Position numbers and translations under genes: made by a program. A stretch of 35,273 nucleotides of DNA from NCBI GenBank assembly GCA_009918425.1, contig RGEC01000003.1:1-35273 (forward strand), read 5' to 3'. Positions 5,918 to 31,751 of the stretch are shown in pieces (positions within the stretch are counted from its first letter, which is position 1; each line of letters begins with the position of its first letter). The notes beneath the pieces are model-generated. The model ran no database searches, was not told where the DNA came from, and was given only the letters and a program-made list of their open reading frames with translations. The DNA comes from Bacteroidota bacterium. GTDB taxonomy: Bacteria > Bacteroidota > Bacteroidia > NS11-12g > UBA955.

Positions 5918-6610
5918 TTATTCAGGTTTGTTTTCTTCTTCGCCTTCCTGGTTTTCAGGAGTGTTTTCTTGTGAGGCTTCGGTAGTTTCAGTTTCCGAAG
6001 TGGTTTCTTCAGCCGATGCAGATACTTCAGGCTGCGTTTCTTCTGATGTTTCAACTACAGTCGTTTCTTCTGTAACCACATTCTCAACAGGAGCTGCAGT
6101 TTCTTCAATCACTTCTGCTTCTACTTCTTCGGCAACAACGGGTGTAGCCTCTACAGGTACGGTAGTTTTAGCGGTGTTTGATGAAGCCTTACTGCGACCA
6201 CGACGGGTTTTCTTCGCTTCTTTCTTATCAGTTCCAAAACCCTGGAAGTATTCATTAAAATCAACCAATTCAATGAATGCCATCTCAGCATTATCACCCA
6301 TACGATTACCCACTTTTAGAATACGTGTGTAACCTCCTGGTCTGTTAGCTACTTTGGCACCTACAACGGTAAACAGCTCTTTTACTGCTTCCTTGTCTTT
6401 CAGGTAAGCAAAAACAGTTCTTTGGTTGTGTGTAGTTGCGTCTTTACCCTTGGTAATCAGGGGTTCAACATATGTCCTCAAAGCCTTGGCCTTGGCCAAA
6501 GTTGTAGTTATACGCTTATGAATTATCAGCGACGATGCCATATTTGCCATCAGCGCTTTGCGGTGAGGCGCAGTGCGTCCTAAATGGTTTACTTTTTTCC
6601 CGTGTCTCAT
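5918..6610 (-). CDS. rplQ: 50S ribosomal protein L17 with long acidic C-terminal extension
   Basis: [36 protein letters not shown]. Confidence 0.97.
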
Positions 6611-6615
6611 TACAC

Positions 6616-7608
6616 TTAATCTTCGTTTAAGTTATACTTGGCGATTTCCATTCCGAAGTGAAGACCTTTGTCACGAACAAACTCTTCAAGTTCAGACAGG
6701 GATTTCTTACCAAAATTGCGGAATTTCAGAAGGTCATCAATGTGGTATTGTACCAATTCACCGAGAGTCTTTATTTCGGCCGCCTTCAAACAATTGTAGG
6801 CACGAACGGAAAGGTCTAGGTCGGCAAGCGGTGTTTTTAGAATTTTGCGCATTTGCAGGAACCCTTCGTCCACTTCTTCTACGGCTTTGCTAACCTTAGA
6901 TTCCGGCATAATATTCTCGTCGCTGAACAACACAAAATGCTGAATCAGGATTTTTGCAGCTTCTTTCAAGGCTTCTTCCGGGTGAATACTGCCGTCGGTT
7001 GTTACTTCCATGACCAATTTTTCATAGTCTGTGCGCTGTTCTACACGGAAGTCTTCTACGCTGTATTTAACATTTCTAATAGGCGTGAAGATACTATCGG
7101 TGGCAATTAAACCTAAAGGAGCATCCTTTACTTTGTTTTCCTCAGCAGGAACATAACCACGACCTTTACCAATGGTAAGTTCAAGCTCCAGGTTTACAGT
7201 CGGTTCAAGGTTACATAAAACAAGCTCAGGGTTAAGAATATTAAATGAGTTGGTATATCGGCCAATATCACCGGCAAGAAACTGGTCCTTGCCTTTGAGG
7301 CTGATAAAAATCTTCTCATTGTCATCGGTAGAAGAATTTGCCTTGAAACGAACCTGTTTAAGGTTAAGGATAATTTCGAGAACGTCTTCAACCACACCTT
7401 TGATCGTAGAAAACTCATGGTCAACACCCTGAATTTTTACAGATGTAATTGCATAGCCTTCAAGTGAAGAAAGCAGGATGCGGCGCATGGCATTTCCAAT
7501 AGTAACACCATAGCCTTTTTCAAGGGGTGAAAATTCAAACACACCGTGAAAATCGGTGGCTTTGTTCATTACCACCTTATTTGGTTTTTGAAAAGGAATA
7601 ACTCCCAT
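6616..7608 (-). CDS. rpoA: RNA polymerase alpha subunit
   Basis: [49 protein letters not shown]. Confidence 0.98.
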
Positions 7609-7631
7609 TTTTTGATTTGTTTTAAAAGGTT

Positions 7632-8156
7632 TTATTTAGAGTACAATTCCACAATCAGCTGTTCTTTTATATTTTCTGGAATCTCGGAACGCTCCGGGTA
7701 GCTGATAAATTTACCGGAAAGTTCACCACCATCCCACTCAAGCCAGTTAAAGCGCTTGCGAACACTACCTGCTGCGTCAGCAATTATCTCAAGCGATTTG
7801 CTGCGCTCGCGCACTGAAACAACATCACCGCGACGTGTGGGAGCGATACCCAAACGAAATACGGTATTGTCGAGACGTGCCTCAAGGAACTTCAACAAGT
7901 TTTCACCGGTAATTCCCTTTTTGGCTGCGGCTTTTTTGAATAAGTTTCTGAACTGCTTCTCCAAAAGACCATAAGTATACTTAGCCTTCTGTTTTTCAGC
8001 CAACTGCACTGCGTATTCAGATAATTTGGGCCTTCTGCGGCTGTTGCCGTGCTGACCCGGACCATAGTTTTTCTTTTCCAACGCCTTATCGCGACCGAAA
8101 ATGGGCTCGCGGAAACGACGGGCTATTTTTGATTTTGGACCTCTGTATCTTGCCAT
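7632..8156 (-). CDS. rpsD: 30S ribosomal protein S4, with apparent internal in-frame deletion
   Basis: [42 protein letters not shown]; only 174 aa and lacks the ARQLVxHxHIxVNG segment. Confidence 0.93.
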
Positions 8157-8181
8157 TGAATGTTATTCTTAAAAATTAAAA

Positions 8182-8565
8182 TTAAACCCTGCGACGCTTA
8201 GGTGGACGACAACCGTTGTGCGGCATAGGAGTGATATCTGTTATGGACAGAACCTCTAAACCTACAGTCTGTAAATTACGAATGGCGCTATCACGTCCGC
8301 CTCCCGGGCCTTTAACAAACACATCAACTTTACGAAGGCCTGAGTCGAACGCAGTCTTTGCACAATCCAATGATGCCATTTGGGCCGCGTAGGGGGTATT
8401 CTTTTTGGATCCTCTGAAACCCATTTTACCGGCAGAGGACCATGAAATCACCTGTCCTTCTGTATTGGTAACGGATACAATAATGTTATTGAAGGTAGCA
8501 TGAATGTGCACCTGCCCGTGGGGATCAACTTTTACTTTCTTTTTGGTTACTTTTTTGGTTGCCAT
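8182..8565 (-). CDS. rpsK: 30S ribosomal protein S11
   Basis: [35 protein letters not shown]. Confidence 0.98.
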
Positions 8566-8579
8566 TTCCCTGTCATCTA

Positions 8580-8957
8580 TTATTTAGTGGCCTTTTTCTT
8601 GCCTGCTACGGTTTTACGTTTACCCTTTCTGGTACGGGCATTGGTGCTGGTGCGCTGTCCACGAACCGGCAATCCTTTACGGTGTCTGAGACCGCGGTAA
8701 CAACCAATGTCCATGAGACGCTTAATATTGAGCTGGGTTTCACTTCTCAACTCACCTTCAGTTTTGAGGTTGTTGGTGATAAATCCACGAATCTTCGATA
8801 AATCATCGTCATCCCAGTCATTAACTTTTTTGTCGCGGCTGATTCCGGAATTATCCAGAATTCTGGCTGCAGTGCTAGGACCAATACCATAAATGTAGGT
8901 CAATCCTATAACACCTCTTTTGTTTTTGGGTAAATCTATACCTGCTATCCTGGCCAT
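8580..8957 (-). CDS. rpsM: 30S ribosomal protein S13
   Basis: [27 protein letters not shown]. Confidence 0.98.
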
Positions 8958-8963
8958 TGTCTG

Positions 8964-9080
8964 TTAACCTTGTCTTTGTTTATACTTAGGGTTCTTTTTG
9001 TTAATTACGTACACCTTACCATTGCGGCGCACAATCTTGCAGTCTACACTGCGCTTTTTTACTGAAGTTCTAACTTTCAT
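8964..9080 (-). CDS. rpmJ: 50S ribosomal protein L36 (zinc-independent type)
   Basis: Missed by ORF track. Manual translation: [38 protein letters not shown] (38 aa). Confidence 0.97.
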
Positions 9081-9084
9081 ATCT

Positions 9085-9303
9085 TTACTTGTATCTGTAA
9101 GAGATCCTTCCTCTTGTTAAATCGTACGGAGACATTTCCACCTGAACCTTATCACCGGGTAGGATTCTGATATAGTGCATTCTCATTTTACCTGAAATGG
9201 TAGCAATAATTTCATGCCCATTCTGGAGCTGTACACGAAACATTGCGTTAGACAATGCTTCTGTTATAACTCCGTCTTGTTTTATGGCATCTTGCTTTGG
9301 CAT
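9085..9303 (-). CDS. infA: Translation initiation factor IF-1
   Basis: [28 protein letters not shown]. Confidence 0.98.
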
Positions 9304-9316
9304 TTCAAAAGGGCTG

Positions 9317-9347
9317 CAAAAATAGTGAATTTTTTGTTAATAATCAA
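9317..9347 (-). promoter_or_regulatory. Internal promoter for infA-rpmJ-rpsM-rpsK-rpsD-rpoA-rplQ
   Basis: Minus strand TTG (9347-9345), 20 nt spacer, TATTTTTG (9324-9317), 13 nt before the infA ATG. Confidence 0.7.
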
Positions 9348-10707
9348 CTTGAGGTGTATTGCCTGTAAAACGGCCTTTGAGACGGCCACTGCTCATCAAT
9401 CCATCGTACTTCCTCATGAGGAGATAACTGTCGATTTGTTGCAATGTATCCAGGACCACACCAACCAAAATGAGCAAACTGGTACCCCCAAAGAACTGAC
9501 TGAATTCCTGATTTACGCCAAGATTTCCGGACAATACAGGTAATACTGCAATTAGGGAAATAAAGATTGCACCGGGCAGTGTAATGCGGCTAATGATATC
9601 ATCTATAAAGTTGGCCGTCTGCTTACCCGGCTTAATACCCGGTATGAAACCGTTGTTTCTCTTCATGTCATCAGCCATCTGAACAGGGTTAAAAATTATA
9701 GCAGTATAGAAATAGGTAAATACTACAATTAAAAACACCATCAGTGCATTGTGACCGAAGCTGTTTGGATTGGTAAGGCTCATGAGCCAGCCTGGCACAC
9801 TGCTCTGATCATAAAATCCTGCAATGGTTGCGGGCAAGAATAGAATAGCCTGTGCAAAAATAATGGGCATAACACCGGCTGCCAGTATTTTGATGGGAAG
9901 ATACTGTCTTACACCACCATACTGACGATTGCCGACAACCCTTTTTGCATAATTAATGGTTATCTTTCTGGTTCCCTGAGTAAGCAATATCACTCCAAGA
10001 ATAACCAAGGCCCATACTACCAATTCAATGAGAAAGAGTATAAAACTTGCGCGTCTTCCCGCAAAAGCCAATTCAGAGAACAGTGCATTCGGAAGTCGGG
10101 CAATGATACCTACCATAATAAGCAAGGATATACCGTTACCTAGACCGCGATCGGTTATACGCTCTCCCATCCACATGGTGAACATTGTACCTGCGGTAAG
10201 AAAAATTACGTTAGTAAAGAAAAACCAGCCTTGTGTAAGGTTAGCATTTTCGCGCAAGAAGAGTAAAGCTCCCTGATATTCAGGATTTCCGGTAAGCTGA
10301 TTGAGATATCCGAAAGCCTGAACACCCGTAAATGCGATGGTAAGGATTCGGGTATACTGATTGATCTTTCTCCTTCCCTCTTCACCTTCTTTCTGCATAC
10401 GCTGAAAGGCAGGAATAGCAATTGAAACCAATTGCATGAAAATACTTGCCGATATATACGGCATTATTCCCAGTGCAAAAATCGCTCCTCTGTTCCAGGC
10501 ACCACCTGCGAAGGTGTTAATCAAGTCAAGGATATTGTTCTTATTCTGGCTGTTCATGTTAGTTTCCAGAATTGAACTGTCGATACCGGGAAGTATTACG
10601 AAGGAACCCAGACGGTATACGGCTAGCAGCAGAAAAGTATAAAGTATTCTTCTCCGAAGCTCCTCTATCGACCAGATATGTTTTAGGGTTTCAATCAGCT
10701 TTTTCAT
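9337..10707 (-). CDS. secY: Preprotein translocase subunit SecY
   Basis: IFALGIMPYISASI, GLGNGISLLI, AGVMPIIFA, GFIPGIKPG, FGGTSLLILVGV. Confidence 0.98.
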   Translation of the reverse strand: MKKLIETLKHIWSIEELRRRILYTFLLLAVYRLGSFVILPGIDSSILETNMNSQNKNNILDLINTFAGGAWNRGAIFALGIMPYISASIFMQLVSIAIPAFQRMQKEGEEGRRKINQYTRILTIAFTGVQAFGYLNQLTGNPEYQGALLFLRENANLTQGWFFFTNVIFLTAGTMFTMWMGERITDRGLGNGISLLIMVGIIARLPNALFSELAFAGRRASFILFLIELVVWALVILGVILLTQGTRKITINYAKRVVGNRQYGGVRQYLPIKILAAGVMPIIFAQAILFLPATIAGFYDQSSVPGWLMSLTNPNSFGHNALMVFLIVVFTYFYTAIIFNPVQMADDMKRNNGFIPGIKPGKQTANFIDDIISRITLPGAIFISLIAVLPVLSGNLGVNQEFSQFFGGTSLLILVGVVLDTLQQIDSYLLMRKYDGLMSSGRLKGRFTGNTPQVDY

Positions 10708-10711
10708 GGAA

Positions 10712-11161
10712 TCAACCTATAACGTGAACAGAGCCACCGGCCTTTTCAATGGCAGTCTTAGCGGTTTCACTAAATTTGTGTGCGTGAACCTCCACACCGG
10801 CTTTGATTTCACCGCGACCCAGAATTTTAACCATCTCGGACTTGCCAACTAGGTGCTTTTTAACAAGAAGCTCGTGATCTATTTTATTTACTTTGAGTGA
10901 ATCAGCAAGCCCCTGCAACACATCCAAGTTGATTGCAGCATATTCAACACGGTTGATATTTTTGAAACCGCCTTTTGGAATACGGCGCTGTAAGGGCATC
11001 TGACCACCTTCAAAACCAATCTTCCTGGAGTATCCTGTACGTGATTGCGCACCTTTATGACCTTTTGTTGATGTTCCGCCTCTTCCAGAGCCTTCACCAC
11101 GGCCAATTCGCTTTCTGTTTTTGGTAGAACCTGCAGCAGGTTTTAAATTACTTAAATTCAT
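10712..11161 (-). CDS. rplO: 50S ribosomal protein L15
   Basis: RIGRGEGSG, GHKGAQSR, GFEGGQMPLQRRIPK. Confidence 0.97.
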   Translation of the reverse strand: MNLSNLKPAAGSTKNRKRIGRGEGSGRGGTSTKGHKGAQSRTGYSRKIGFEGGQMPLQRRIPKGGFKNINRVEYAAINLDVLQGLADSLKVNKIDHELLVKKHLVGKSEMVKILGRGEIKAGVEVHAHKFSETAKTAIEKAGGSVHVIG

Positions 11162-11162
11162 G

Positions 11163-11345
11163 TTACTTGGTGTTTTCTACTTTAATAAGATGATTAACGG
11201 TGTTGATCATACCCTGAATCTGATTATTCAGTTCTATTTCAGCACTCGCATTGATTTTGCGGAGACCTAAGGCACGAAGCGTAGCTTTCTGGTTCTTGGG
11301 ATATCCGATACCGCTTTTTACCAGTGTAATTTTAACTTTTCCCAT
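11163..11345 (-). CDS. rpmD: 50S ribosomal protein L30
   Basis: KITLVKSGIG..TLRALGLRK; position between rpsE and rplO. Confidence 0.95.
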   Translation of the reverse strand: MGKVKITLVKSGIGYPKNQKATLRALGLRKINASAEIELNNQIQGMINTVNHLIKVENTK

Positions 11346-11349
11346 GACC

Positions 11350-11868
11350 TTATCCGTTGAATACTTTTTTAAGATTAATATTTCTCATTTTGGCCACTGC
11401 ATAAGGGTCTCTCATGGTAGTTAGGGCATCGAATGTAGCCTTAACAACGTTGTGGGGGTTTGAGGAACCTTTGGATTTGGCCAATACGTCGGTTACACCC
11501 GCACTTTCCAGCACGGCACGCATAGCACCACCGGCAATAACACCGGTACCATGTGCTGCGGGCTTAAGGAATACGCGACCTCCGCCGAATTTACCGGTCT
11601 GTTCGTGAGGAACCGTACCGTTTATTACAGGAACTTTGATGAGGTTTTTCTTTGCATCTTCAATTCCTTTGTTTACGGCGTCCATTACTTCGTTGGAGCG
11701 ACCCAAACCATGACCTACCACACCATTTCCGTCACCCACAACTACGAGGGCACTGAAACTGAAAGTACGGCCACCTTTGGTTACTTTGGCAACACGATTG
11801 ATGGAAACCACTTTTTCGGTAAGTGTCAACTCACCGGGTCTCACACGCTTATTGATATTTTCAGACAT
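11350..11868 (-). CDS. rpsE: 30S ribosomal protein S5
   Basis: [30 protein letters not shown]. Confidence 0.98.
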
Positions 11869-11889
11869 TTGAATGACTTCTTTAATAAA

Positions 11890-12246
11890 TTAAAATTCCA
11901 ATCCTCCTTCGCGGGCTGCGTCTGCAAGGCTTTTTACACGTCCATGGTACAGATAACCGCCACGATCGAAAACTACAGACTTAATACCGGCTGCCATGGC
12001 TTTTTCGGCCAGTTTTTTACCTACCAAAGCAGATTTAGCTACCTTATTATCTTTTACATCCTTGATACCATCTTCAGAAGATGATGCAGAACAAAGGGTA
12101 ACTCCTTTGCTGTCATCTATGATCTGGGCGTAGATATCTTTATTGCTGCGGTATACACTGAGGCGGGGCCTTACAGTTGTTCCGCTTATACGACCGCGAA
12201 TACGGCTGCGAATTTTGCTTCTTCTTTGTGCTACTGATTTTGACAT
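11890..12246 (-). CDS. rplR: 50S ribosomal protein L18
   Basis: [36 protein letters not shown]. Confidence 0.98.
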
Positions 12247-12258
12247 AACTAATTAAAA

Positions 12259-12810
12259 TTATTTGGCTGCTGATTTACCTGCCTTCTTTCTCAATACTTC
12301 ACCGGCAAACTTGATACCTTTACCCTTGTAAGGCTCAGGCTTACGGAATGAACGGATTTTAGCAGCTATCTGGCCTAAAAGCTGTTTGTCTGCACATTCC
12401 ATGGTGATGGAAGGGTTCTGACCTTTCAGCGTTTCAGTGGTAACTTTAATTTCCTTTGGGATCTCCAGCATGATGCGGTGAGAGTAACCCAGGGTAAAGT
12501 CTACCAGATTGCCCTGGTTGGATACTTTGTAACCAACACCGACCAATTCCTGTTTAACTGTGTGGCCCTGACTAACACCAACAACCATATTCTGAATCAA
12601 AGCACGGTAAAGGCCGTGCAATGCTTTATGTTGCTTGCTGTCGCTCGGGCGATTTACTGTCAGCACTCCATCGGTGATTTCAATTGTGATTTCTGTTCCG
12701 ATGTATTGCGACACTTCTCCTTTTGGACCCTTGGCAGTGATGTTTCCATTATCATTGGTAATGGTAACGCCGGCCGGGATACTGATGGGTGCTTTTCCTA
12801 CGCGTGACAT
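12259..12810 (-). CDS. rplF: 50S ribosomal protein L6
   Basis: MSRVGKAPI, RKPEPYKGKGI. Confidence 0.98.
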   Translation of the reverse strand: MSRVGKAPISIPAGVTITNDNGNITAKGPKGEVSQYIGTEITIEITDGVLTVNRPSDSKQHKALHGLYRALIQNMVVGVSQGHTVKQELVGVGYKVSNQGNLVDFTLGYSHRIMLEIPKEIKVTTETLKGQNPSITMECADKQLLGQIAAKIRSFRKPEPYKGKGIKFAGEVLRKKAGKSAAK

Positions 12811-12833
12811 TTTGTTTTATTGATTTATTATTA

Positions 12834-13232
12834 TTAAGATACGTAACACAATACTTCACCGCCAACATTCTGTGTGCGCGCTTCTTTGTCTGTCATTACA
12901 CCTTTTGAGGTGGTAAGAATCGCTACACCAAGACCATTCAATACACGGGGCATTGTGTCTACATTGGCATATCTGCGCAGACCCGGCGTGCTGACTCTGG
13001 ACAAACTGCGAATTGCGCTTGCCTTGGTAACGGGATCGTATTTAAGGGCTATTTTAATTACGCCCTGTTTGTTTTCTGAATCTTCGAATTTGTATTTAAG
13101 GATATATCCTTTTTCATACAAAACACGGGTGATTTCCTTTTTCAGGTTGCTGGCAGGAATTTCAACAATTCTGTGCTTCGCCTTCATGGCATTGCGCAAC
13201 CGGGTGAGAAAATCTGATATTGGATCGGTCAT
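12834..13232 (-). CDS. rpsH: 30S ribosomal protein S8
   Basis: MTDPISDFLTRLRNA, STPGLRRY, GGEVLCYV. Confidence 0.98.
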   Translation of the reverse strand: MTDPISDFLTRLRNAMKAKHRIVEIPASNLKKEITRVLYEKGYILKYKFEDSENKQGVIKIALKYDPVTKASAIRSLSRVSTPGLRRYANVDTMPRVLNGLGVAILTTSKGVMTDKEARTQNVGGEVLCYVS

Positions 13233-13250
13233 TTTATTCTTTTATTAATA

Positions 13251-13520
13251 TTACCAACTTGATTTAGTTACACCTGGAATCTTTCCGTCGCTCGCCAGTA
13301 ATCTGAACTGGTTACGGCAAATGCCGAAAGTACGGATGTAACCCCTTGGACGGCCTGTGAGTTTGCAACGATTGCGCAAACGAACGGGTGATGCATTTCT
13401 GGGAATACGCTGCAAAGCATCGTAATTTCCTTCAGCCTTAAGCGCGGCGCGTTTTTCAGCATAACGGGCCACCAGTGCCTCGCGCTTACGCTGTCTTGCC
13501 TTTATGGATTCTTTTGCCAT
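13251..13520 (-). CDS. rpsN: 30S ribosomal protein S14 (89-aa type lacking the full zinc motif)
   Basis: [21 protein letters not shown]. Confidence 0.97.
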
Positions 13521-13525
13521 GTATA

Positions 13526-14077
13526 TTATTTACTTTTAAAGGGGAAACCCATCAGTTTCAGCAGTTCCAGACATTCCTCGTCTGTTTTGGCTGTGGTAAC
13601 GATGGTAATATCCATACCAGTGATTCTGTTAACTTTATCAATGTCAATTTCAGGGAAAATGATCTGTTCAGTAATGCCCATGTTAAAATTACCACGGCCA
13701 TCAAAACCTTTCACATTCAGGCCCTGAAAATCGCGTACGCGTGGCAATGCGATGCTGATGAGGCGATGTATAAAGTCATACATAGCTTCCTTGCGCAGGG
13801 TAACCCTTGCACCGATAGGCATATTCTCCCTTAATTTAAAGTTTGAAATAGCCTTGCGAGAGAATGTTGCCTGGGCTTTCTGACCGGATATTTTGGTCAT
13901 TTCCTCTACAGCGGCATCTACCAGTTTTTTATCATTTACTGCAGCACCCACACCTTGGTTGAGGCTAACCTTTACCAAACGGGGCATTTCCATTACATTT
14001 TTGTAACCGAATTTCTCCTTAAGAGCCGGCACTACGACTTCCTCGTAGCGGGTTTGCAGAAGTGGTTTATAGCTCAT
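13526..14077 (-). CDS. rplE: 50S ribosomal protein L5
   Basis: [39 protein letters not shown]. Confidence 0.98.
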
Positions 14078-14088
14078 TTTTCTAATTC

Positions 14089-14415
14089 TTATTTAATAAA
14101 TTCTCCGGTTTTGCGGGCAACTCTTTGCAGTTTGCCATCATCATTCAGCTTTCTACCGATTCGGGTTGGCTTGCCACCTACTACTACCATAAGGTTTGAA
14201 ATATGGATGGGAGCCTCAACCTTATCAATTTTACCGCTGGTATTCTGGGCAGTAGGTTTGCGGTGTTTGGTAACGATGTTCAAACCTTCTACCAAAGCGC
14301 GGTTGTCAGCTACCATAACCTTCAGGACCTTACCGGTTTTTCCTTTGTCATCCCCGGAAATCACCTTTACGGTATCTCCTTTTTTAATATGCAATTTAAC
14401 TTTTGACACTTTCAA
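14089..14415 (-). CDS. rplX: 50S ribosomal protein L24 (non-ATG start: TTG 14415 or GTG 14409)
   Basis: KOW motif [27 protein letters not shown]. Confidence 0.95.
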
Positions 14416-14421
14416 TATTGA

Positions 14422-14790
14422 TTAAAGCACTTCTGGTGCAAGTGATACAATTTTCATGAACTGCTTGTCACGGAGTTCCCTTGCTACAGGCCCGAAAATA
14501 CGAGTACCTCTGGGTTCATCCGAAGCATTTAACAGTACACAGCTGTTCTCATCAAAACGGATATAGGATCCGTCGGGACGGCGAACTTCTTTTTTAACAC
14601 GCACAACCACCGCTTTGGATACGGCTCCTTTTTTCATACCGCCGCCAGGCATAGCGTCTTTTACGCTTACCACGATTTTGTCTCCAACTGAGGCATAACG
14701 ACGGCCTGATCCACCGAGTACGCGGATGCAGAGCACTTCGCGTGCACCGCTGTTGTCAGCTACTTTTAGTCTTGATTCCTGTTGTACCAT
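14422..14790 (-). CDS. rplN: 50S ribosomal protein L14
   Basis: [27 protein letters not shown]. Confidence 0.98.
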
Positions 14791-14791
14791 C

Positions 14792-15052
14792 TTATTTAGC
14801 TTTTTCTACTACTTCGACCAATCTCCAACGTTTGGTTTTGCTCAAAGGACGTGTTTCCATGATGCGAACGATATCGTTTTCACCACATTGGTTGGTTTCG
14901 TCATGAGCTGTGTATTTCTTGGTCTTTTTGAAATACTTACCATATTTGGGGTGTTTCACGTTACGAACAACCGATACCACAATGGTTTTATCCATCTTGG
15001 TACTGGTTACCGTGCCGGTAATTTCTTTCCGTGAATTCCTTACTGTTTCCAT
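14792..15052 (-). CDS. rpsQ: 30S ribosomal protein S17
   Basis: [27 protein letters not shown]. Confidence 0.98.
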
Positions 15053-15288
15053 TAGTTATTCTCTCCGTTATTCTTTTTCATATAAGCAGCCAACTCAGCC
15101 TGAATGCGGCGATTGTTCAATTCAGTAAGCATTCTTGCAATGTTCTTACGGGTAATTGACAACTTGTGCGGCTGTTCAATCTGAGAAACTGTATTCTGGA
15201 ACTTCATCTTCTGGTAGCGCGTACGTTCTTCTCTGTAAGCGGTCACAAGTTCCTTATTAGACATTCCTTTTACTTCTTCGTTTTTCAT
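15052..15288 (-). CDS. rpmC: 50S ribosomal protein L29
   Basis: Position between rplP and rpsQ; [11 protein letters not shown] motif. Confidence 0.92.
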
Positions 15289-15290
15289 AA

Positions 15291-15716
15291 TTATGCCTCC
15301 TCGGCGAAATCAGGACGTACAACAAATTTGGTGGTTACCGGCAGTTTCTGGGCAGCCAGACGCATTCCTTCTTTGGCAGTTTCCAGGGGTACACCACCCA
15401 CCTCGAACATAATGGTTCCGGGTTTTACGGTAGCAACCCAATATTCGGGAGCACCCTTACCCTTACCCATACGCACTTCAGCAGGCTTTTTGGTTACGGG
15501 TTTGTCCGGGAAAATACGGATCCAAACCTGTCCTTCACGCTTAAGATAGCGGGTAAGAGCAATACGGGCAGCTTCAATCTGACGGGCTGTGATCCAGTGA
15601 GGTTCAAGGCTTTTGAGACCGAAACTTCCGAAATCAACGCGGTGACCACGGGTTGCAACACCTTTCACACGGCCTTTCTGCTGTTTCCTATATTTGGTTC
15701 TTTTTGGGCTAAGCAT
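15291..15716 (-). CDS. rplP: 50S ribosomal protein L16
   Basis: [26 protein letters not shown]. Confidence 0.98.
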
Positions 15717-15738
15717 CGTTTCTTTCTTTTAATCTTGA

Positions 15739-16488
15739 TTATTTACGCTTGCGGCGATCACCACCAGGACGAGGACCTCTGTCGCGGTCTCTGCCTCTGT
15801 CGTCTCTTCCTCTTGCACCGTCGCGCTTTCTTTCTGTATCCAACTGAGGTGCCAGGTCAACCTTGCCATAGATTTCACCACGGCACAGCCATACCTTGAT
15901 ACCAATTTTACCATACACGGTCTGAGCTTCTACAATAGCGTAGTCGATATTACTTCTGAGCGTGTGCAGAGGAGTACGTCCGTCTTTATACATCTCAGAA
16001 CGAGCAATTTCACCACCGTTCAAACGACCGCTGATTCTTACCTTAATTCCTTCTGCGCCCATTTTCATGCTGCTTTGAATAGCATTCTTCACGGCACGCT
16101 TGTAAGAAAAACGATTCTCGATCTGCTGGGCGATGTTCTCACCAACTAACTGCGCATCGAGCTCAGGTCTTTTGATTTCGTTGATATTGATCTGAACATC
16201 CTTACCGGTAATCTTGCGGATTTCCTCACGGATTGTATCTACTTCCTGGCCACCACGACCAATAACAATACCAGGGCGTGATGTATGAATGGTAATGGTG
16301 ATGCGCTTCAGAGTGCGCTCGATTACCACTTTGGCAATACCCCCTTTGGGTATGCGAACACGCAGATATTTGCGGATTTTTTCGTCTTCAACCAGTTTAT
16401 CACCGTAGTCTTTTCCACCATACCAGTTGGAGTCCCAACCACGAATGATTCCCAGACGCAATCCTATTGGGTTAACCTTTTGTCCCAT
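15739..16488 (-). CDS. rpsC: 30S ribosomal protein S3
   Basis: [38 protein letters not shown]. Confidence 0.98.
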
Positions 16489-16489
16489 A

Positions 16490-16855
16490 TTAGTTATTTA
16501 CCTCACTTTTTGTTACAGTATCAATGACAATCGTTACGTGGTTGCTGCGCTTGCGCTGACGGTAACCGCGACCCTGAGGGGCAGTGCGTAGACGCTTCAT
16601 GGTTACACCACCATCCACCAGTATTGACTTTACATACAGATCGCTGTCTTCAATTCGCTCACCGGAATTGATCTGACTCCAGTTGGCTACACCGCTGCGA
16701 ATCAACTTGCTCAGAAACAAGGCATAACCTGGCTTCTGGTTCCACTGAAGGATGTTGAGAGCACGTTCTACTTTCTGACCACGTACCAAATCTGCCACCA
16801 TACGCATTTTGCGGGGTGAAAGAGGGCAGTTTCTCAAAATTGCTTTAGCTTCCAT
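16490..16855 (-). CDS. rplV: 50S ribosomal protein L22
   Basis: [29 protein letters not shown]. Confidence 0.97.
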
Positions 16856-16873
16856 TTTGTTTCTTCTCCCTTT

Positions 16874-17131
16874 TTATTTGCTGTGACCTTTGAAAGTGCG
16901 GGTTGGAGCGAATTCGCCCAACTTATGACCTACCATGTTCTCGGTTACATAAACCGGAATGAATTTATTTCCGTTGTGCACAGCGAATGTGTGTCCCACG
17001 AAATCGGGGAGAATCATGCTGCGGCGCGACCAGGTTTTAACAACCGATTTTTTGTTACCCTCGTTAAGAACGGTAACCTTGCGCATCAACTTATAGTCTA
17101 CGAATGGGCCTTTTTTTACTGACCTTGCCAT
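16874..17131 (-). CDS. rpsS: 30S ribosomal protein S19
   Basis: [28 protein letters not shown]. Confidence 0.98.
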
Positions 17132-17143
17132 TTTTTTTAGTTA

Positions 17144-17983
17144 TTAATTGCTGTTCCTCTTACTTTTTCTACGTTCGATAATCAGGCGGCTTGTGGCTTT
17201 CTTGGGCGCACGCGTCTTCTGACCTTGTGAATAAATCAGGTTTCTTGAACGAGCCTGACCACCTTTGTTGCGGCCTTCGCCACCACCCATCGGGTGATCA
17301 ACAGGGTTCATGGCTGTACTTCTGGTGCGGGGACGAATACCCAACCAACGGCTACGTCCGGCTTTGCCTTTGCGCAGTAAATTGTGTTCGCTGTTGCTAA
17401 CAGAACCTATTGTAGCAAGACATGCAGACAACACTTTTCTCAATTCACCTGAAGGCAATTTGATGGTTGCATATTTGTCTTCGCGACCCAGCAACTGAGC
17501 ATAAGAACCGGCACTTCTGCAGATTTTAGCTCCTTGACCGGGCGACATTTCAATGTTGTGAATCAAAGAACCCAGGGGAATTTCCGACATAGGAAGTGCG
17601 TTTCCGATTTCGGGGGGAACGCCTGGACCCTGTTCGATTTTCTGGCCTACCTTAATGCCGTTGGGGGCAATGATGTAGCGCTTTTCACCATCGGTATACT
17701 GAATCAGTGAAATGAATGCGCTGCGGTTTGGATCGTATTCTACGCTGAGAACTTCACCGGCCACACCATGATTGGCTCTTTTGAAGTCAATCATACGATA
17801 ACGGCGCTTGTGTCCGCCACCGATAAAACGCATGGTCATGCGACCCTGGTTATTTCTTCCGCCTGATTTCTTGATAGGAACAATCAGGGATTTTTCCGGC
17901 TTGTCTGTGGTGATTTCTGCAAACGAGTTTGCAATGTGAAACCGTTGACCGGGCGTTGTTGGATTTAAACGTTTAACTGCCAT
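17144..17983 (-). CDS. rplB: 50S ribosomal protein L2
   Basis: [29 protein letters not shown]. Confidence 0.98.
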
Positions 17984-17985
17984 GA

Positions 17986-18270
17986 TCAGATGTTTTCGTA
18001 AAAGTCAATGTTGAAACCTTCTTTTAACGTCACGATGGCCTTTTTATACCCGTTGGTATAACCGGAGATCTGGCCTGTGCGTCTGTTGCGACGCATTTTC
18101 CCCCTTGCAATCATTGTGTTTACTGATGCCACTTCCACTCCATAGAAATCTTCGATGGCCTTTTTGATTTCGTCTTTGGTAGATTTTTTATCTACTACGA
18201 AACCATATTGACCACGCTTATCCATGATAGCGGTCATTTTCTCAGTAATCAACGGCTTCTTGAGTATCAT
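17986..18270 (-). CDS. rplW: 50S ribosomal protein L23
   Basis: [21 protein letters not shown]. Confidence 0.96.
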
Positions 18271-18893
18271 TGTTTATTTGATTCTTCTAATTTGGTTAAT
18301 GCTCCTTCTGTGAGGATAAGCTTTCCGGCTTTCAAAACCTGGTAGGTATTGATATCAGCAGCCTTCATCACAGTGTTACCTTCAATATTCCTTCCGCTGA
18401 GGTATATGTTTTTGTTGGTTTCTGCAGTTACGAACAATGTGCGGGCATTGATGTTCAGTGCATTCAGGAAACCTTTGAATTCGGCAGTTTTGGGTGTTGC
18501 CATTTCAAAATCCTCAACAACAAGAATGTTATTTTCCTTAGCCTTGTAAGAAAGCGCGCTCAAACGAGCCAACTTTTTCAGTTTCTTGTTTAACTTGAAC
18601 GAGTAGTCGCGGGGACGGGGACCATGAATACGGCCACCACCCACGTAGATACCTGACTTTAAGCTACCATGACGGGCTCCGCCTGTTCCTTTTTGGCGAA
18701 ACAGCTTGCGTGTACTACGAGAAATCTCAGAACGGTCCTTGGTTTTGTGTGTACCCTGACGCTGATTTGCCTGAAACTGTTTAACATCCAGCCAGATAGC
18801 GTGATCATTGGGTTCTATTCCAAAGATATCTTTGGATAATGTAACCGTTCTTCCGGTTTCAGCACCCTGTTTGTTTAATACATTGATTTTCAT
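18267..18893 (-). CDS. rplD: 50S ribosomal protein L4
   Basis: [31 protein letters not shown]. Confidence 0.98.
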
Positions 18894-18895
18894 GG

Positions 18896-19522
18896 TTAAC
18901 GCTCAACTATTACGGTGGAACCATTATGGCCGGGAACGGATCCCTTAACCAACAATAAATTTTGTTCAGGAACGATACGAAGCACCTGCATGTTTACGGC
19001 TTTCACGCGGCGATTGCCGGTTTGTCCTGCCATACGGATACCTTTGAAAACACGGGCAGGAAATGAACAGGCACCGATAGAACCGGGGGCACGCAGGCGG
19101 TTGTGCTGACCGTGGGTAGCTTCACCCACACCAGCAAATCCATGGCGCTTTACAACACCTTGAAATCCCTTACCCTTTGAAGTTCCGATCACATCCACAA
19201 ACTGGCCTTCTTCGAAGATGGAAACATCAAATACGTCTCCCAGTTTAGCAGCAGCTTCAGCTTCATCAGGGTTACGAAATTCTACGAAAGATTTTTTCGC
19301 ATCTGTATTGGCTTTTGCGCAGTGGCCTTTTAAGGCAGCCCCTGCATTCTTTTCTTTTTTCTCACCCCAGGCCATCTGGATCGCGCTGTATCCATCTTTT
19401 TCCTGGGTTTTAACCTGCGTTATTACACAGGGACCGGCCTCAATAACGGTGCAAGCCACCTTGCGGCCATCAGCATCAAAAATGCTGGTCATTCCGAGTT
19501 TTTTTCCAATCAATCCTTCCAT
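18896..19522 (-). CDS. rplC: 50S ribosomal protein L3
   Basis: [29 protein letters not shown]. Confidence 0.98.
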
Positions 19523-19530
19523 GGTTCAAA

Positions 19531-19839
19531 TCACAATTTGATTTCAACTTCTACCCCGCTGGGCAGTTCTATTTTCATGAGGGCGTCTACGGTTTTGGTA
19601 GAGCCGTTATAAATGTCAATCAGTCTCTGATACGTGCAGTACTGAAACTGTTCACGTGCTTTCTTGTTTACGTGTGGTGAACGCAATACGGTGAATATCT
19701 TCTTGCGGGTAGGAAGAGGAACCGGTCCACTTACAACTACGTCTGTAGTGCGCACGGCCTTCACAATTTTCTCAGCGCTTTTATCCAGCAGGCTGTGATC
19801 GAAAGACTTTAATTTTATGCGAATCTTCTGGCTTAACAT
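19531..19839 (-). CDS. rpsJ: 30S ribosomal protein S10
   Basis: [30 protein letters not shown]. Confidence 0.98.
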
Positions 19840-19847
19840 TTTCTTAA

Positions 19848-21983
19848 TTATTTACTGGCTGCACCATTAACTTTCTTCAAAACCTCGTCTGCAATGTTGC
19901 GGGGAGTTTCTGAATAGTGACTGAATTCCATACTTGAAGTAGCGCGACCTGATGTGATGGTACGAAGGGTTGTTACGTATCCAAACATTTCACTCAGCGG
20001 AACTTTAGCTTTTACCACCTGAGAACCTGCGCGCTCATCAATACCCTCGAGTTGTCCACGGCGGCGGTTAAGGTCACCCATAACATCACCGGTATTTTCA
20101 GCAGGTGTTACCACCTCCAGCTTCATGATAGGTTCCAGCAAAACCGGACCGCAATTGCGGGCAGCTTCACGGAAACCGCCTCTGGCTGCAACTTCGAATG
20201 ACAATGAGTCGGAGTCAACAGGGTGGAAAGATCCATCAAACAGACGAACTTTTATTGAGCTGATAGGATAGCCTGCCAATACACCATTTTGCATAGCAGC
20301 CTTAAATCCTTTTTCAACCGAAGGTATAAATTCACGGGGAATGGATCCACCTACAATTTCATTCACAAACTGAAGACCTTCGCCTTTGAAATCAGCATCA
20401 GCAGGGCCCAGTTCGAATTGAATATCGGCAAACTTACCACGACCACCGGTTTGCTTTTTATAAACTTCGCGGTGGGTAAAGTTGCGGGTAATGGCTTCTT
20501 TGTAAGCAACCTGAGGAGCACCCTGATTACATTCCACTTTGAACTCGCGCTTCAGTCGGTCAACGATAATTTCAAGGTGCAATTCACCCATACCGGATAC
20601 AACTGTCTGGCCTGTATCCTGATCTGTCTGAACGCGGAAAGTAGGATCTTCTTCAGCAAGTTTGGCCAGCGCAGTACTGAGCTTATCGCTGTCGGCCTGC
20701 GTTTTGGGCTCGATAGCAAGACCAATTACCGGATCAGGGAAAACCATAGATTCAAGCACGATTGGGTGCTTTTCGTCACAAAGGGTATCACCGGTTTTGA
20801 TATCTTTGAAACCTACTGCAGCACCGATATCACCGGCACCCAGAGATTCAATAGCATTTTGTTTGTTGGCATGCATCTGGAAAATACGGCTGATACGTTC
20901 TTTGTTACCACTGCGGGTATTAAGCACGTAAGAACCGGCATCCAGTTTGCCACTGTAGGCACGCATAAATGCAAGGCGACCAACATAAGGATCGGTAGCA
21001 ATTTTGAAAGCCAGCGCACTGAAAGGATCATCGTAGGAAGGCTTACGGGTAATTTCAGCCTCAGTATCGGGGTTTGTACCTTTGATGCTTTCCTTGTCAA
21101 GTGGGCTGGGCATCAATTCCATAACCAGATCCAGCATGGTTTGTACACCTTTATTTTTGAAAGACGAACCACAAACCATCGGAACAATTTTCATTTCCAG
21201 TGTAGCCTGACGGAGTGCATTGAGGATTTCTCTTTCGGTAATGCTGTTGGGATCTTCGAAGAATTTCTCCATCAAAGTTACGTCGTATTCAGAAACAGCC
21301 TCGAGCAGCTTTTCGCGCCACTCATTGGCTTCTGCTTCCATTTCGGCAGGAATGGGAACTACCTGATAGGTCATGCCTTTATCAGCCTCATTCCAGATCA
21401 TTCCGCGGTTGTTAATCAAATCAACCACACCTTTAAAATTGTCTTCAGCACCAATGGGAAGCTGCAGGGGCACTGCATTACTACCTAACATATCACGTAC
21501 CTGATTTACTACATTCAGAAAATCGGCGCCTGCGCGGTCCATTTTATTTACAAAACCGATACGGGCAACATTGTAGTTATTGGCCAGGCGCCAGTTGGTT
21601 TCTGACTGTGGTTCAACACCGTCAACTGCGCTGAACAGGAAAACCAGACCATCGAGTACGCGGAGTGAGCGGTTTACTTCTACTGTGAAGTCTACGTGAC
21701 CGGGAGTATCAATGATATTGATGTGATATTCTTTTGTATCGGCATTGGGACGTCCGTCGGTAGTAGGATAGTTCCACTTAACCGTGGTTGCTGCTGAAGT
21801 AATGGTAATACCTCTCTCCTGCTCCTGAACCATCCAGTCCATGGTGGCAGCACCATCGTGCACTTCACCAATCTTGTGGTTCACGCCCGCATAATAAAGA
21901 ATGCGTTCTGTAGTAGTGGTTTTACCGGCATCAATGTGAGCGGCAATACCGATGTTTCTTGTGTATCTAAGGTCGCGTGACAT
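19848..21983 (-). CDS. fusA: Elongation factor G
   Basis: [46 protein letters not shown]. Confidence 0.99.
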
Positions 21984-22007
21984 GAATCTTCTTCTCTTCT
22001 AATTATT

Positions 22008-22478
22008 TTAAACCCTAAAATGCGAGAAAGCCTTGTTGGCTTCAGCCATTTTGTGAGTATCTTCTTTTTTCTTTACTGCGGCACCTTCACCCCTGGAAGC
22101 GGCAAGAATTTCACCGGCCAGTTTTTCTGCCATTGATTTTTCGTTGCGCTTACGGGCATAACCTATCATCCACTTCATACCCACTGCAGTGCGGCGGCGG
22201 GGAGAAACTTCGGTAGGGATCTGGAAAGTAGCACCACCAACACGGCGGGCTTTAACTTCCACGGTAGGCATTACATTATTTAAAGCCTTGCGCCAGGTTT
22301 CAAGTCCGGGCTCATCGGGAGCTTTTTTCTCAACTATTTCCAGAGCATCATAGAACAGGCTGTATGCAAGAGACTTTTTGCCATCATACATCAGGCCGTT
22401 AACGAAACGCGTTACAACGGTGTCGTTGAACTTTGGATCGGGCAGAAGAATGCGTTTTTTAGCGCGGGTTTTTCTCAT
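22008..22478 (-). CDS. rpsG: 30S ribosomal protein S7
   Basis: [32 protein letters not shown]. Confidence 0.98.
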
Positions 22479-22512
22479 GGTCTGTCAGGTATACCTATAT
22501 ATAGTGTTGAAC

Positions 22513-22890
22513 TTATTTTTTCTTGGGACGTTTGGTGCCATACTTGGAACGGCGCTGATTGCGGCCTTCCACACCGGCTGTATCGAGCGCACCGCGTACG
22601 ATGTGGTAACGAACACCGGGAAGATCTTTTACCCTACCGCCACGAACCAGCACGATGCTGTGTTCCTGAAGGTTGTGACCTTCACCGGGGATGTAGGCAT
22701 TCACTTCCTTGCCATTGCTCAAACGAACACGGGCAACTTTGCGAAGTGCAGAGTTAGGTTTCTTAGGCGTGGTGGTGTATACACGGGTGCAAACACCACG
22801 GCGCTGGGGGCATGAATCAAGGGCGGGCGACTTGCTCTTCCAGAGCGTCTCCTGGCGACCTTTGCGTATTAACTGTTGAATAGTAGGCAT
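22513..22890 (-). CDS. rpsL: 30S ribosomal protein S12
   Basis: [29 protein letters not shown]. Confidence 0.99.
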
Positions 22891-26914: not shown

Positions 26915-29143
26915 TTAAAATGAGAGCCTTACTGATGCTACCAGATTTCTTCCGGGGGCTGAAATTCCGCTTGAAAAAACACGATAATTTAAATCAAGTA
27001 CATTCTCAACGGCAAAAGATGCTGCCAGATTTTTATTCACCTGCCAGCTAGCACGCAAATTGTATGTTTGCCAAGCCGGTGTTTCTCCACCTGGTGCATA
27101 CTGGGCATTATCTTCTCCGCTGGGGCTGTATTCTCGCCTGATTTTTCGGCCGTTGAACAACATAAATGCTTCCCACTGCCATTCCTCGCTTGACCAACGC
27201 AAACCCAGTCTGCCATGATCTGGCGCAATATGATCTATGGGTGTCCATAAAGCTTTCTCAGCTGACTTATAACGCCCAAAAGTACTGTTGTAATTTACAT
27301 CTGCAAATAACCCTTCTATGAGATGAATTTTTGCGGCAAAATAACCTCCTGTTACATATCCAAGAGCTGAATTACCCATTTGAAAAACAGGGGTACGCTG
27401 ACCTTCAAAATCAAAGGAATCATCACCATTATAAATACCGGGGCCATCAATCAGCAACTGGGTTATGCGGGTGTAATAACCTCCCATTTCCAGATGTATT
27501 TTCTTTCGGTCTAGGCGAAATCCAAGATCCAGGGTGCGGGTGCGCTCAGGTTTCAGGTCTTTGTTAGGAATGACCAGTTTTCTGCCGGGCACACTCTCAA
27601 ACAGTTTGGTCATATCATCCACATTTGGATTTCTGAAACCTGCAGCAAGACTGGCTTTGAAAAACAATCCGTCCCAATCCATTTTTTTGGAAAGTCCGAG
27701 GTTATAAACCGGGGCAAGACTGCTTATTTCAGCCAATTGGTAGGGTAACTTTAAAAAATTATCAGAACTAAAACTGGCATTAAGCTGATAATAAGTTAAG
27801 CGAAATCCTCCCTCGAGGATGAAATCATGGGGTTTAATGGCGTAAATGGCATTGGCGAATAAGGCAGAAGACATTGTATTAGCTCCGCCATCAGCATACC
27901 GGGTATTCTTACTGGCAGCAATCTCACCTGTTTTTACATTTTTGGTTGAGGCAGTAGACTGAACTTTATTTACAACCCATTCTGCCCCGCCCTGTATTTG
28001 AAAATCTGGCTTCACATTCACTACGAAATCGTAGTTAACGGCTGTCATTCCGACTTTATCCAGCTGTGTAAGTTCGGATTCATTCCCAAACCGCCTGGTG
28101 ACCCTTCCTACACTTGTGGTTTGGTGAGATAAAATCAGTCTGTGATTCCAGCCATCCTTTTTAGGAATCAACAAAGTGTAAGAAAAAAAATCTCTGTTTT
28201 GAGGAACGTAATTCCATGTGGCAAAGCGGAATTTTCCGGCAGAAATATCTGTAAGCCTGTCATATCTTGGCACAGCATCTGCCCTAGACAGCTGCATATT
28301 CAGCGTATGGATAAGATTTCCCGATTTTACCGAAAGCTTAGAAAACACATCATTCTGTGTGTAGGCACTTCCCAGTTGCACGTAGGGATTGTCATTCAAC
28401 AACATGGTATCTCTATTGTATATTCTGGCGCTGTAATAGCTGCGCAAGCCAAAAGTATCCCAATGTGAAAAATGTCTTTGCTGGCCCATACGAAGATTAC
28501 TGAAATCGCTGCTCGTAGTACTAAAAACCCATGCTACATTCTTTCCGCTCAATTCCATATTAACATTGGAAATTGCGGCACTGGCCGCTGACATATACCT
28601 AAAATTGGCGTTGGCACCGGCAAATCCAAAATTAGCATTCCGGAATTTAGGATCACGGGTTTTCATATATACTACCCCACCAAGGGCATCGCTGCCAAAC
28701 TGGGTAGAACCTGAACCAAAGAAAACTTCAGTTCTGTCAAGCATAAATTGATCGACAGTAATTATATCCTGTAAATGTCCTGCTCGGTATGTGGCGTTGT
28801 TCATGCGAACCCCGTCAACAACGAGTAAAACCCTACTAGATTCAAAACCACGGAGAACCGGGCTGCCACCACCCAACTGGCTTTTCTGCACAAAAACCTG
28901 TCCGGTCTGAGATAACATATCTGCCATCGTACCTTGTTGCGCAAGCTGCATCTGTCTGGCAGAAATAACTTCAATCTGACGGGTCGTATTGGCTCTGCTT
29001 GAGCCAAATCGCTGCGCTGAAACCAAAATTTCGTCCATGGTCTCCAGCTCGGCTGTGTCTTTGATTTTATTTAGTTGCTCATTCTGAGCCCTGACTGCCA
29101 TGATTAATACAAGCATGACAATCAATAATGATTGTTTTTTCAT
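26915..29143 (-). CDS. TonB-dependent outer membrane receptor (substrate unknown; resembles heme/iron-type receptors)
   Basis: Signal peptide; DEILVSA TonB-box-like; plug motif GGGSPVLRGF..VLLVVDGVRMNN; GSDALGGVV; GFRNPN; ENVLD..Y..PGRN; C-terminal Phe. Confidence 0.92.
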   Translation of the reverse strand: MKKQSLLIVMLVLIMAVRAQNEQLNKIKDTAELETMDEILVSAQRFGSSRANTTRQIEVISARQMQLAQQGTMADMLSQTGQVFVQKSQLGGGSPVLRGFESSRVLLVVDGVRMNNATYRAGHLQDIITVDQFMLDRTEVFFGSGSTQFGSDALGGVVYMKTRDPKFRNANFGFAGANANFRYMSAASAAISNVNMELSGKNVAWVFSTTSSDFSNLRMGQQRHFSHWDTFGLRSYYSARIYNRDTMLLNDNPYVQLGSAYTQNDVFSKLSVKSGNLIHTLNMQLSRADAVPRYDRLTDISAGKFRFATWNYVPQNRDFFSYTLLIPKKDGWNHRLILSHQTTSVGRVTRRFGNESELTQLDKVGMTAVNYDFVVNVKPDFQIQGGAEWVVNKVQSTASTKNVKTGEIAASKNTRYADGGANTMSSALFANAIYAIKPHDFILEGGFRLTYYQLNASFSSDNFLKLPYQLAEISSLAPVYNLGLSKKMDWDGLFFKASLAAGFRNPNVDDMTKLFESVPGRKLVIPNKDLKPERTRTLDLGFRLDRKKIHLEMGGYYTRITQLLIDGPGIYNGDDSFDFEGQRTPVFQMGNSALGYVTGGYFAAKIHLIEGLFADVNYNSTFGRYKSAEKALWTPIDHIAPDHGRLGLRWSSEEWQWEAFMLFNGRKIRREYSPSGEDNAQYAPGGETPAWQTYNLRASWQVNKNLAASFAVENVLDLNYRVFSSGISAPGRNLVASVRLSF

Positions 29144-29212: not shown

Positions 29213-29698
29213 TTACACTTCCGGTGGTGGAGAAAAAACGGGCACAAATGGATTTACGGTAATGTAGCAATTATAACTATTAGCAACTATGGCGTATGTC
29301 GTGGGTATTTTCAATTCAAATACATTTTCAGTAGCAATTGTTTTAATCCAGTAGGCTGTTTTGCCAGATTGGCCATGGTTTTTTTCATCTTGTTCTTCCA
29401 GCCATTTTTCTTTGGTATCATCAATTACAGTAATCAGCCAGTAAGACCCCTTGTCCGCCACGGAGATTACATCATAACGATGCCCCTTAAAATCAAACTC
29501 TACACATTTATCGGCATTGGGATAATCTTTTTTCTCAAGCCTTACTATTTCACCACTAAGTTCTTCCCATTGCCTCTCAATTTTGGAGTGAATATCGGCA
29601 CGGTGGAATGCAATAGAAATACCGTTGATAAGTGGGAAAACCGCCAGAAGGACAGCAAGCGCAAACAAATGAAATTTAAAACCTTTTGGCGATAGCAC
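29213..29698 (-). CDS. Small membrane-anchored hypothetical protein ending in FSPPPEV, upstream of the TonB receptor
   Basis: In-frame GTG at 29698 directly after a -33/-7 promoter; hydrophobic N-terminal segment; EFDFKGHRYDVI..DDTKE core. Confidence 0.7.
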   Translation of the reverse strand: MLSPKGFKFHLFALAVLLAVFPLINGISIAFHRADIHSKIERQWEELSGEIVRLEKKDYPNADKCVEFDFKGHRYDVISVADKGSYWLITVIDDTKEKWLEEQDEKNHGQSGKTAYWIKTIATENVFELKIPTTYAIVANSYNCYITVNPFVPVFSPPPEV

Positions 29699-29704
29699 AG
29701 GTAG

Positions 29705-29735
29705 CAAAAATAATTTATTACATAACAAACACAAA
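29705..29735 (-). promoter_or_regulatory. Promoter for the small ORF and TonB receptor
   Basis: Minus strand TTTG (29735-29732), 19 nt spacer, TATTTTTG (29712-29705). Confidence 0.65.
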
Positions 29736-29769
29736 CAGTCTTGTGTAAAAAGTGACCGCAATTATTGGG

Positions 29770-30984: not shown

Positions 30985-31751
30985 TGCGTTATTTTCTGGA
31001 ACTGGCTTACAACGGAACTGATTTTGGCGGCTGGCAAAAACAGGACGAGGTGGTTAGTATCCAGGCTGTTTTGGAAAGTAAATTATCTCTTATTCTCAGA
31101 CAGCCTGCTGAAGTATACGGTTGTGGCCGCACCGACACCGGTGTTCACGCCACCTACTTCACAGCCCATTTTGATACAGATGCTGAGGTACCCGCAAATC
31201 TGGTTTACCGCCTCAATGGAATGTTGCCAAAAACCATATCCGTATTTCAATGCCGTCAGGTGACAGACGAACTGCACGCCAGGTTTTCAGCTATTGCCAG
31301 AACCTACCGCTATTATATCACACATGCACGCAATCCTTTCACGCATCAAACTTCCTTTTATTCACCTTTCAAACCCAACATTGAACTGATGAACAAGGCC
31401 GCTGAAATGCTTTTATCTCACACAGAGTACCGATGCTTTTGCAAAGGCAAAGCACCCGGCGGCAGCTACAAATGTGTTGTATCAGAAGCAGAGTGGTGCG
31501 AGACCGAAGATGGACTTGTTTTTAAGGTAACCGCCAACCGGTTTTTACGCAGTATGGTGCGTAGTATGGTAGGGACTATGCTGAAACTGGGATTAGGCAA
31601 AATGACCCTGGACCAATTTTGTGAGTTGTTACAATCCGGGAACCGCAATATGGCAGGAAAATCAGCACCCCCGCAAGGTTTATACCTTGTTGATGTAGTT
31701 TATCCCAATTTCGAAAAAGCAACGAGCCTTATTCAGCCCCCAGTCGCTTGA
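30984..31751 (+). CDS. truA: tRNA pseudouridine(38-40) synthase
   Basis: AYNGTDFGGWQ, GRTDTGVHA (catalytic Asp), HARFSA..RTYRY, NRFLRSMVR, APPQGLYL. Confidence 0.96.
   Translation: MRYFLELAYNGTDFGGWQKQDEVVSIQAVLESKLSLILRQPAEVYGCGRTDTGVHATYFTAHFDTDAEVPANLVYRLNGMLPKTISVFQCRQVTDELHARFSAIARTYRYYITHARNPFTHQTSFYSPFKPNIELMNKAAEMLLSHTEYRCFCKGKAPGGSYKCVVSEAEWCETEDGLVFKVTANRFLRSMVRSMVGTMLKLGLGKMTLDQFCELLQSGNRNMAGKSAPPQGLYLVDVVYPNFEKATSLIQPPVA

Follow-up and report, generated by a model that had tools for sequence, protein, structure and literature searches.

An in-frame gap of 81 nucleotides in the rpsD gene of a Bacteroidota metagenome-assembled genome, very probably an assembly error

uS4 in described systems and in the assembled contig

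The closest described counterparts of the gene studied here are the uS4 proteins of solved Bacteroidota ribosomes, both of which are 201 amino acids (aa) long (PDB 9i5v chain l and 7jil chain i). An in-frame S4 loss that leaves the rest of the protein intact is known from the ram allele rpsD(delta K201-L203) of S. pneumoniae, where, in the portion of the study drawn on here, it is confined to three residues at the extreme C-terminus (PMC3175624). Draft genomes recovered from metagenomes have been described as prone to local assembly errors that lack the support of reads; according to the sections of the account cited here, such errors are recognised by the lack of perfect read support and lead to incorrect protein-coding sequences in public databases (Chen, Anantharaman, Shaiber, Eren and Banfield 2020, PMC7111523).

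The window analysed here, 35,273 nucleotides (nt) in length, is the whole of one contig (C113) of a draft metagenome bin that comprises 2.38 Mb in 422 contigs, with estimated values of 4.6% contamination and 96.9% completeness. The ORF list, Pfam matches and alignment place on its minus strand an rpsD open reading frame (ORF; 7632–8156) that encodes a 174-aa uS4 from which 27 residues of the S4 domain are absent. The alpha operon has the gene order rpsM-rpsK-rpsD-rpoA-rplQ, and the ORF occupies the corresponding position among the genes for S13, S11, RpoA and L17, which likewise lie on the minus strand; infA and secY are also nearby on that strand. Because of this gene neighbourhood, running from rpsK to rpoA entirely on the minus strand, the locus is the canonical rpsD of the organism.

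The loss is restricted to one of the two uS4 domains. The N-terminal domain (Ribosomal_S4, PF00163) is complete, with residues 3–92 covering profile positions 1–95 of 95 at a score of 102.2 bits, relative to a Pfam cut-off of 23. The S4 RNA-binding domain (PF01479) is matched at profile positions 2–17 of 48 only, and its score of 13.5 bits falls below the cut-off of 22.8; 28 of the 48 profile positions are missing. The translation across the junction reads ...[17 protein letters not shown]..., and the absent segment corresponds to residues 110–136 of the 201-aa form, the core of the S4 domain. The window ORF agrees with the solved Bacteroidota proteins in its N-terminal domain, in its C-terminal part and in operon position, and differs from them in being without residues 110–136. 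Like the S. pneumoniae ram allele, it combines an in-frame loss with an otherwise intact S4, but the residues lost are 27 in number and internal to the S4 domain. In the sole copy of the gene, such an internal loss would be a far larger lesion than the three-residue ram deletion.

Extent of the gap and the full-length gene in relatives and same-population assemblies

We collected rpsD loci from 19 relatives (L002–L020) and left out one (L003) in which the ORF is cut by the contig end. The 18 complete ORFs that remained encode 201 aa in 17 cases and 200 aa in one, and alignment with them revealed a single 27-column gap in the window protein, ...APTRR // GDVV.... At the DNA level, alignment with ten complete same-genus genes, which are 77.7–87.8% identical to the window gene when the gap is excluded, demonstrated that exactly 81 nt are absent. 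The original prediction of a 174-aa S4 that had lost about 27 residues (about 81 bp) in frame is thereby made exact at 27 aa and 81 nt. Comparison with a near-identical metagenome contig allows three equivalent placements of the deletion, with the last kept base at 7828, 7829 or 7830, in agreement with the junction near 7829/7830 that had been proposed. The junction feature (7828–7831, without strand) accordingly carries 81 missing nt and a 2-nt ambiguity, CG, as supported by the DNA alignments and by split contig pieces in four of four sequencing runs. These 2 nt are the entire exact microhomology at the deletion ends. Read on the coding strand, one end is CGCTG and the other CGGTG, alike at four of five nt; the guess that a CGGTG repeat flanks both ends is borne out as a near-match, but not as an exact repeat.

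Full-length rpsD was found in 40 of 40 related genomes, of which 11 belong to the same genus, a further 13 to the same family and another 16 to the same order, and thus in every one of the 11 genus members. In these relatives the gene is one open frame of 200–209 aa, to which the window query matches as two pieces flanking the absent segment; the window ORF is not collinear over the full length with its orthologues of about 200 aa. Alignment with Bacteroidota S4 proteins and close relatives, which had been suggested as a check, hence confirms the gap, and the gap is not a property of the lineage.

Protein collections gave a corresponding picture. A homologue search covered about 5.8 billion cluster representatives, from which 8000 candidates were scored. 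Among the best 120 of these 8000, all 119 other homologues are 200–201 aa long and carry both PF00163 and PF01479; the sole entry of 174 aa with PF00163 only is the window's own protein. This protein forms a one-member cluster among about 15 billion proteins and has been seen on one contig, the present one. A near-identical full-length protein was not found in the clustered collection, in which the best representatives are 86–90% identical outside the gap.

We scanned JGI metagenome contigs with a 24-base stretch located beside the junction, and two contigs, L026 and L027, matched. Both possess 81 extra nt exactly at the junction. With the indel excluded, L026 differs from the window at one base in 1341 aligned; L027 shares this one substitution and additionally lacks one base. 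The S4 encoded by L026 is 201 aa long, and comprises all 174 aa of the window protein, each identical, together with [27 protein letters not shown]. It matches PF01479 at 62.8 bits over profile positions 2–48. Because this contig of the same population passes the profile, the PF01479 failure would belong to the assembly and not to the organism. The L026 protein is also collinear with the uS4 of the solved ribosomes, aligning over residues 1–201 with 9i5v chain l and 7jil chain i without large gaps (E values of 2.9e-91 and 8.1e-86, respectively).

Public sequencing runs provided a further set of assemblies. The stretch or part of it is contained in 20 runs from 12 studies, all of them freshwater or lake metagenomes. 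Four runs from four studies (X1, X2, X4 and X7) were aligned on positions 7300–8500, using Logan contigs and not raw reads. In each of the four, exactly one contig crosses the junction, as two pieces that meet at 7829/7830; the aligner splits the record in two around the 81-letter insertion and does not report it as inserted letters. The excess is 81 letters throughout: 713 record letters relative to a window span of 632 in X1 (record 1), 317 relative to 236 in X2 (record 9), 740 relative to 659 in X4 (record 15) and 772 relative to 691 in X7 (record 24). The depth over 7792–7873 is, in each run, that of the single full-length contig, and the deleted junction is supported by no contig in any of the four runs, in contigs that drop rare variants. 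The full-length form is present and dominant in these runs; contigs cannot show that the deleted form is absent from them. X1 is the best holder of the stretch, with 0.93 of the sampled words. Apart from the insertion, its contigs show no differences over 632 window bases and none over a 369-base piece (8132–8500) that overlaps by 23 bases, and X1 may be the source sample of the genome.

Two other joints were considered as junction evidence and rejected. These connect 7661 with 8201 and 7661 with 8204, and their short sides measure 30 and 22 letters. The longer record has several mismatches in its short pieces, and both joints are interpreted as contigs from other organisms that match at conserved ends of genes.

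Minor variation was seen among the same-population contigs. The base lacking from L027 is the equivalent of window position 8113, in the 5' part of rpsD, and leaves a longest ORF of 176 aa with an internal start, probably through a further minor error of sequencing or assembly in a public contig from this population. At window position 7507, an A>G substitution is common to both JGI contigs and to runs X4 and X7, and is absent from X1. As the only substitution in about 1.3 kb, it points to a uniform freshwater population across studies.

Competing explanations for the junction

Taken together, the 81-nt in-frame gap is very probably a local assembly error, or a non-representative consensus, of this one contig and not a feature of the organism. 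Independent assemblies from the same population, in four of four runs and in two of two JGI contigs, disagree with the window consensus, and they include a full-length gene whose flanks are about 99.9% identical. In the sequence of events that we propose, the gap would have arisen as a local assembly or consensus error while the 422-contig metagenome-assembled genome (MAG) was being built. We infer an error of the assembler or of post-processing as the cause; the absence of the gap from all other assemblies of the same population is a direct observation. The real gene of the organism is predicted to encode a uS4 of the normal 201 aa, its S4 domain intact. Three readings of the gap had originally been offered. 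Assembly collapse or microhomology-mediated deletion is now favoured, because the 81 nt are present in every same-organism assembly examined and in 40 of 40 relatives, which are the observations named at the outset as counting against a biological reading. A paralog-backed decaying copy and a genuinely reduced S4 are not supported.

The locus resembles the MAG errors described previously in being a short stretch of draft consensus at odds with other assemblies of its population. It differs from them in being judged by contigs and not by read support, and the cited sections of that account do not specifically describe an in-frame loss of 81 nt (PMC7111523).

The origin of the junction is the weak point of the assembly-error argument. 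Sequence that spans a junction normally has to originate in some read. Two routes by which the segment might have been skipped were evaluated: i) a long flanking direct repeat that collapses the k-mer graph was rejected, as the exact repeat is only 2 nt and a microhomology of this length is too short for k-mer collapse; and ii) a hairpin or secondary-structure skip was rejected, as the full-length region folded as single-stranded DNA has a z value of -0.33, with 70 of 200 shuffles folding at least as well, and the minimum-energy fold has a single stem, which does not enclose the segment that was deleted. With a 2-nt microhomology and an ordinary fold, neither k-mer collapse nor a hairpin skip explains the junction. 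The junction came either from a step of assembly or post-processing, or from a rare molecule in the library, real or chimeric.

We therefore weighed the possibility that the assembler followed a rare real deletion allele, generated when 81 nt were lost at the 2-nt microhomology in some cells or molecules. Such an allele would supply the origin that the junction sequence needs, and illegitimate recombination or replication slippage fits a 2-nt microhomology better than k-mer collapse does. Outside the gap the gene does not differ from the full-length form, so that the deletion would have to be very recent. The loss is also in frame; an in-frame loss is expected in one of three random deletions, and a tolerated real allele would look alike. 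E. coli ram mutants with longer C-terminal S4 truncations exist, on account of which viability of the deleted allele is possible in principle. We nonetheless regard this explanation as unlikely. None of the contigs in the four runs carries the junction, the protein is a singleton in the collections, and a cell with this sole copy would be deprived of more than half of the S4-domain profile. S4 is described as essential for 30S biogenesis (PMC2665224, in the part cited here); in S. pneumoniae, disruption of rpsD is stated to be lethal, and the cited part of that study reports only the three-residue C-terminal deletion as a viable ram allele (PMC3175624).

Were the loss real and viable, it would be surprising for an essential primary rRNA binder, and the alpha-L core of the S4 domain would be dispensable in vivo for binding to the 16S five-way junction; the evidence is strongly against this. 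We accordingly find it very improbable that a real freshwater sub-population exists in which an S4 lacking the 27 residues is encoded by the only rpsD and still assembles into a working 30S.

Fixation of a reduced but functional S4 in the lineage is hardly credible. In its favour are an intact, in-frame ORF, normal flanks and a normal operon context; against it, the same-population contigs are full length (one difference over the 1341 bases of L026, none in X1), as are all same-genus genomes, and the 174 positions shared with L026 hold no substitutions that hint at adaptation to the loss. The suggestion of a genuinely reduced S4 is thus not supported for the species. That this rpsD is decaying while an intact paralog at another site in the genome backs it up has a next to negligible probability: at the estimated completeness a second copy could sit on missing sequence, but when the protein was searched against all six frames of the entire genome, no rpsD other than this locus was found, the missing 81 nt were found nowhere else in the genome, the four other PF01479 matches lie on other contigs in frames of 538, 340, 438 and 120 aa that the rpsD query does not match, the gene sits in the canonical operon position, and each of the 40 relatives has one locus, matched as two pieces, and no second. 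Even jointly, the fixed reduced S4 and the paralog-backed pseudogene account for very little of the probability.

Consequences and the remainder of the contig

Under the assembly-error explanation the biology is unaffected, and the organism would have an ordinary uS4. The consequence is one of data quality: the 174-aa protein stands in public databases (NCBI, NCBI nr) as the representative S4 of the species. uS4 is among the ribosomal marker proteins commonly used in phylogenomics and in completeness estimates, and the record therefore places a 27-residue hole in a marker protein. In practice, the present analysis serves to flag a species-representative genome as containing a faulty marker protein.

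The remainder of the contig looks sound when its genes are aligned with those of two genus relatives, G006 and G008. On the minus strand, the upstream neighbour rpsK (uS11; 8182–8565, 127 aa, PF00411) is intact with no gaps relative to either relative, as are rpsM (uS13; 8580–8957, 125 aa, PF00416) and the downstream neighbour rpoA (RNA polymerase alpha; 6616–7608, 330 aa, PF01000, PF01193 and PF03118). Across the conserved genes from 8182 to 22890, internal gaps do not exceed one residue relative to these genomes, in keeping with the earlier statement that the adjoining ribosomal protein genes are of normal length.

A few further features of the contig were observed. The rplQ gene (bL17; 5918–6610, minus strand, 230 aa) matches PF01196 at residues 20–116 and ends in an acidic, low-complexity C-terminal tail rich in E and T. 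This tail alone varies in length among the genus relatives, by 11–23 gap positions; the whole of bL17 measures 229 aa in G006 but 211 aa in G008. Towards the contig end at 35273, a minus-strand ORF (31729–35196) encodes at least 1155 aa with no Pfam family at E ≤ 1e-5. Its orthologues in G006 and G008 are 1512–1516 aa long and 92–94% identical; the window ORF, which the contig end probably truncates, is without about 360 of their N-terminal residues. Lastly, a 182-aa ORF (29213–29761, minus strand) with no Pfam match adjoins a TonB-dependent receptor gene (26915–29143), and is 51–59% identical to its genus orthologues, far more diverged than its neighbours.
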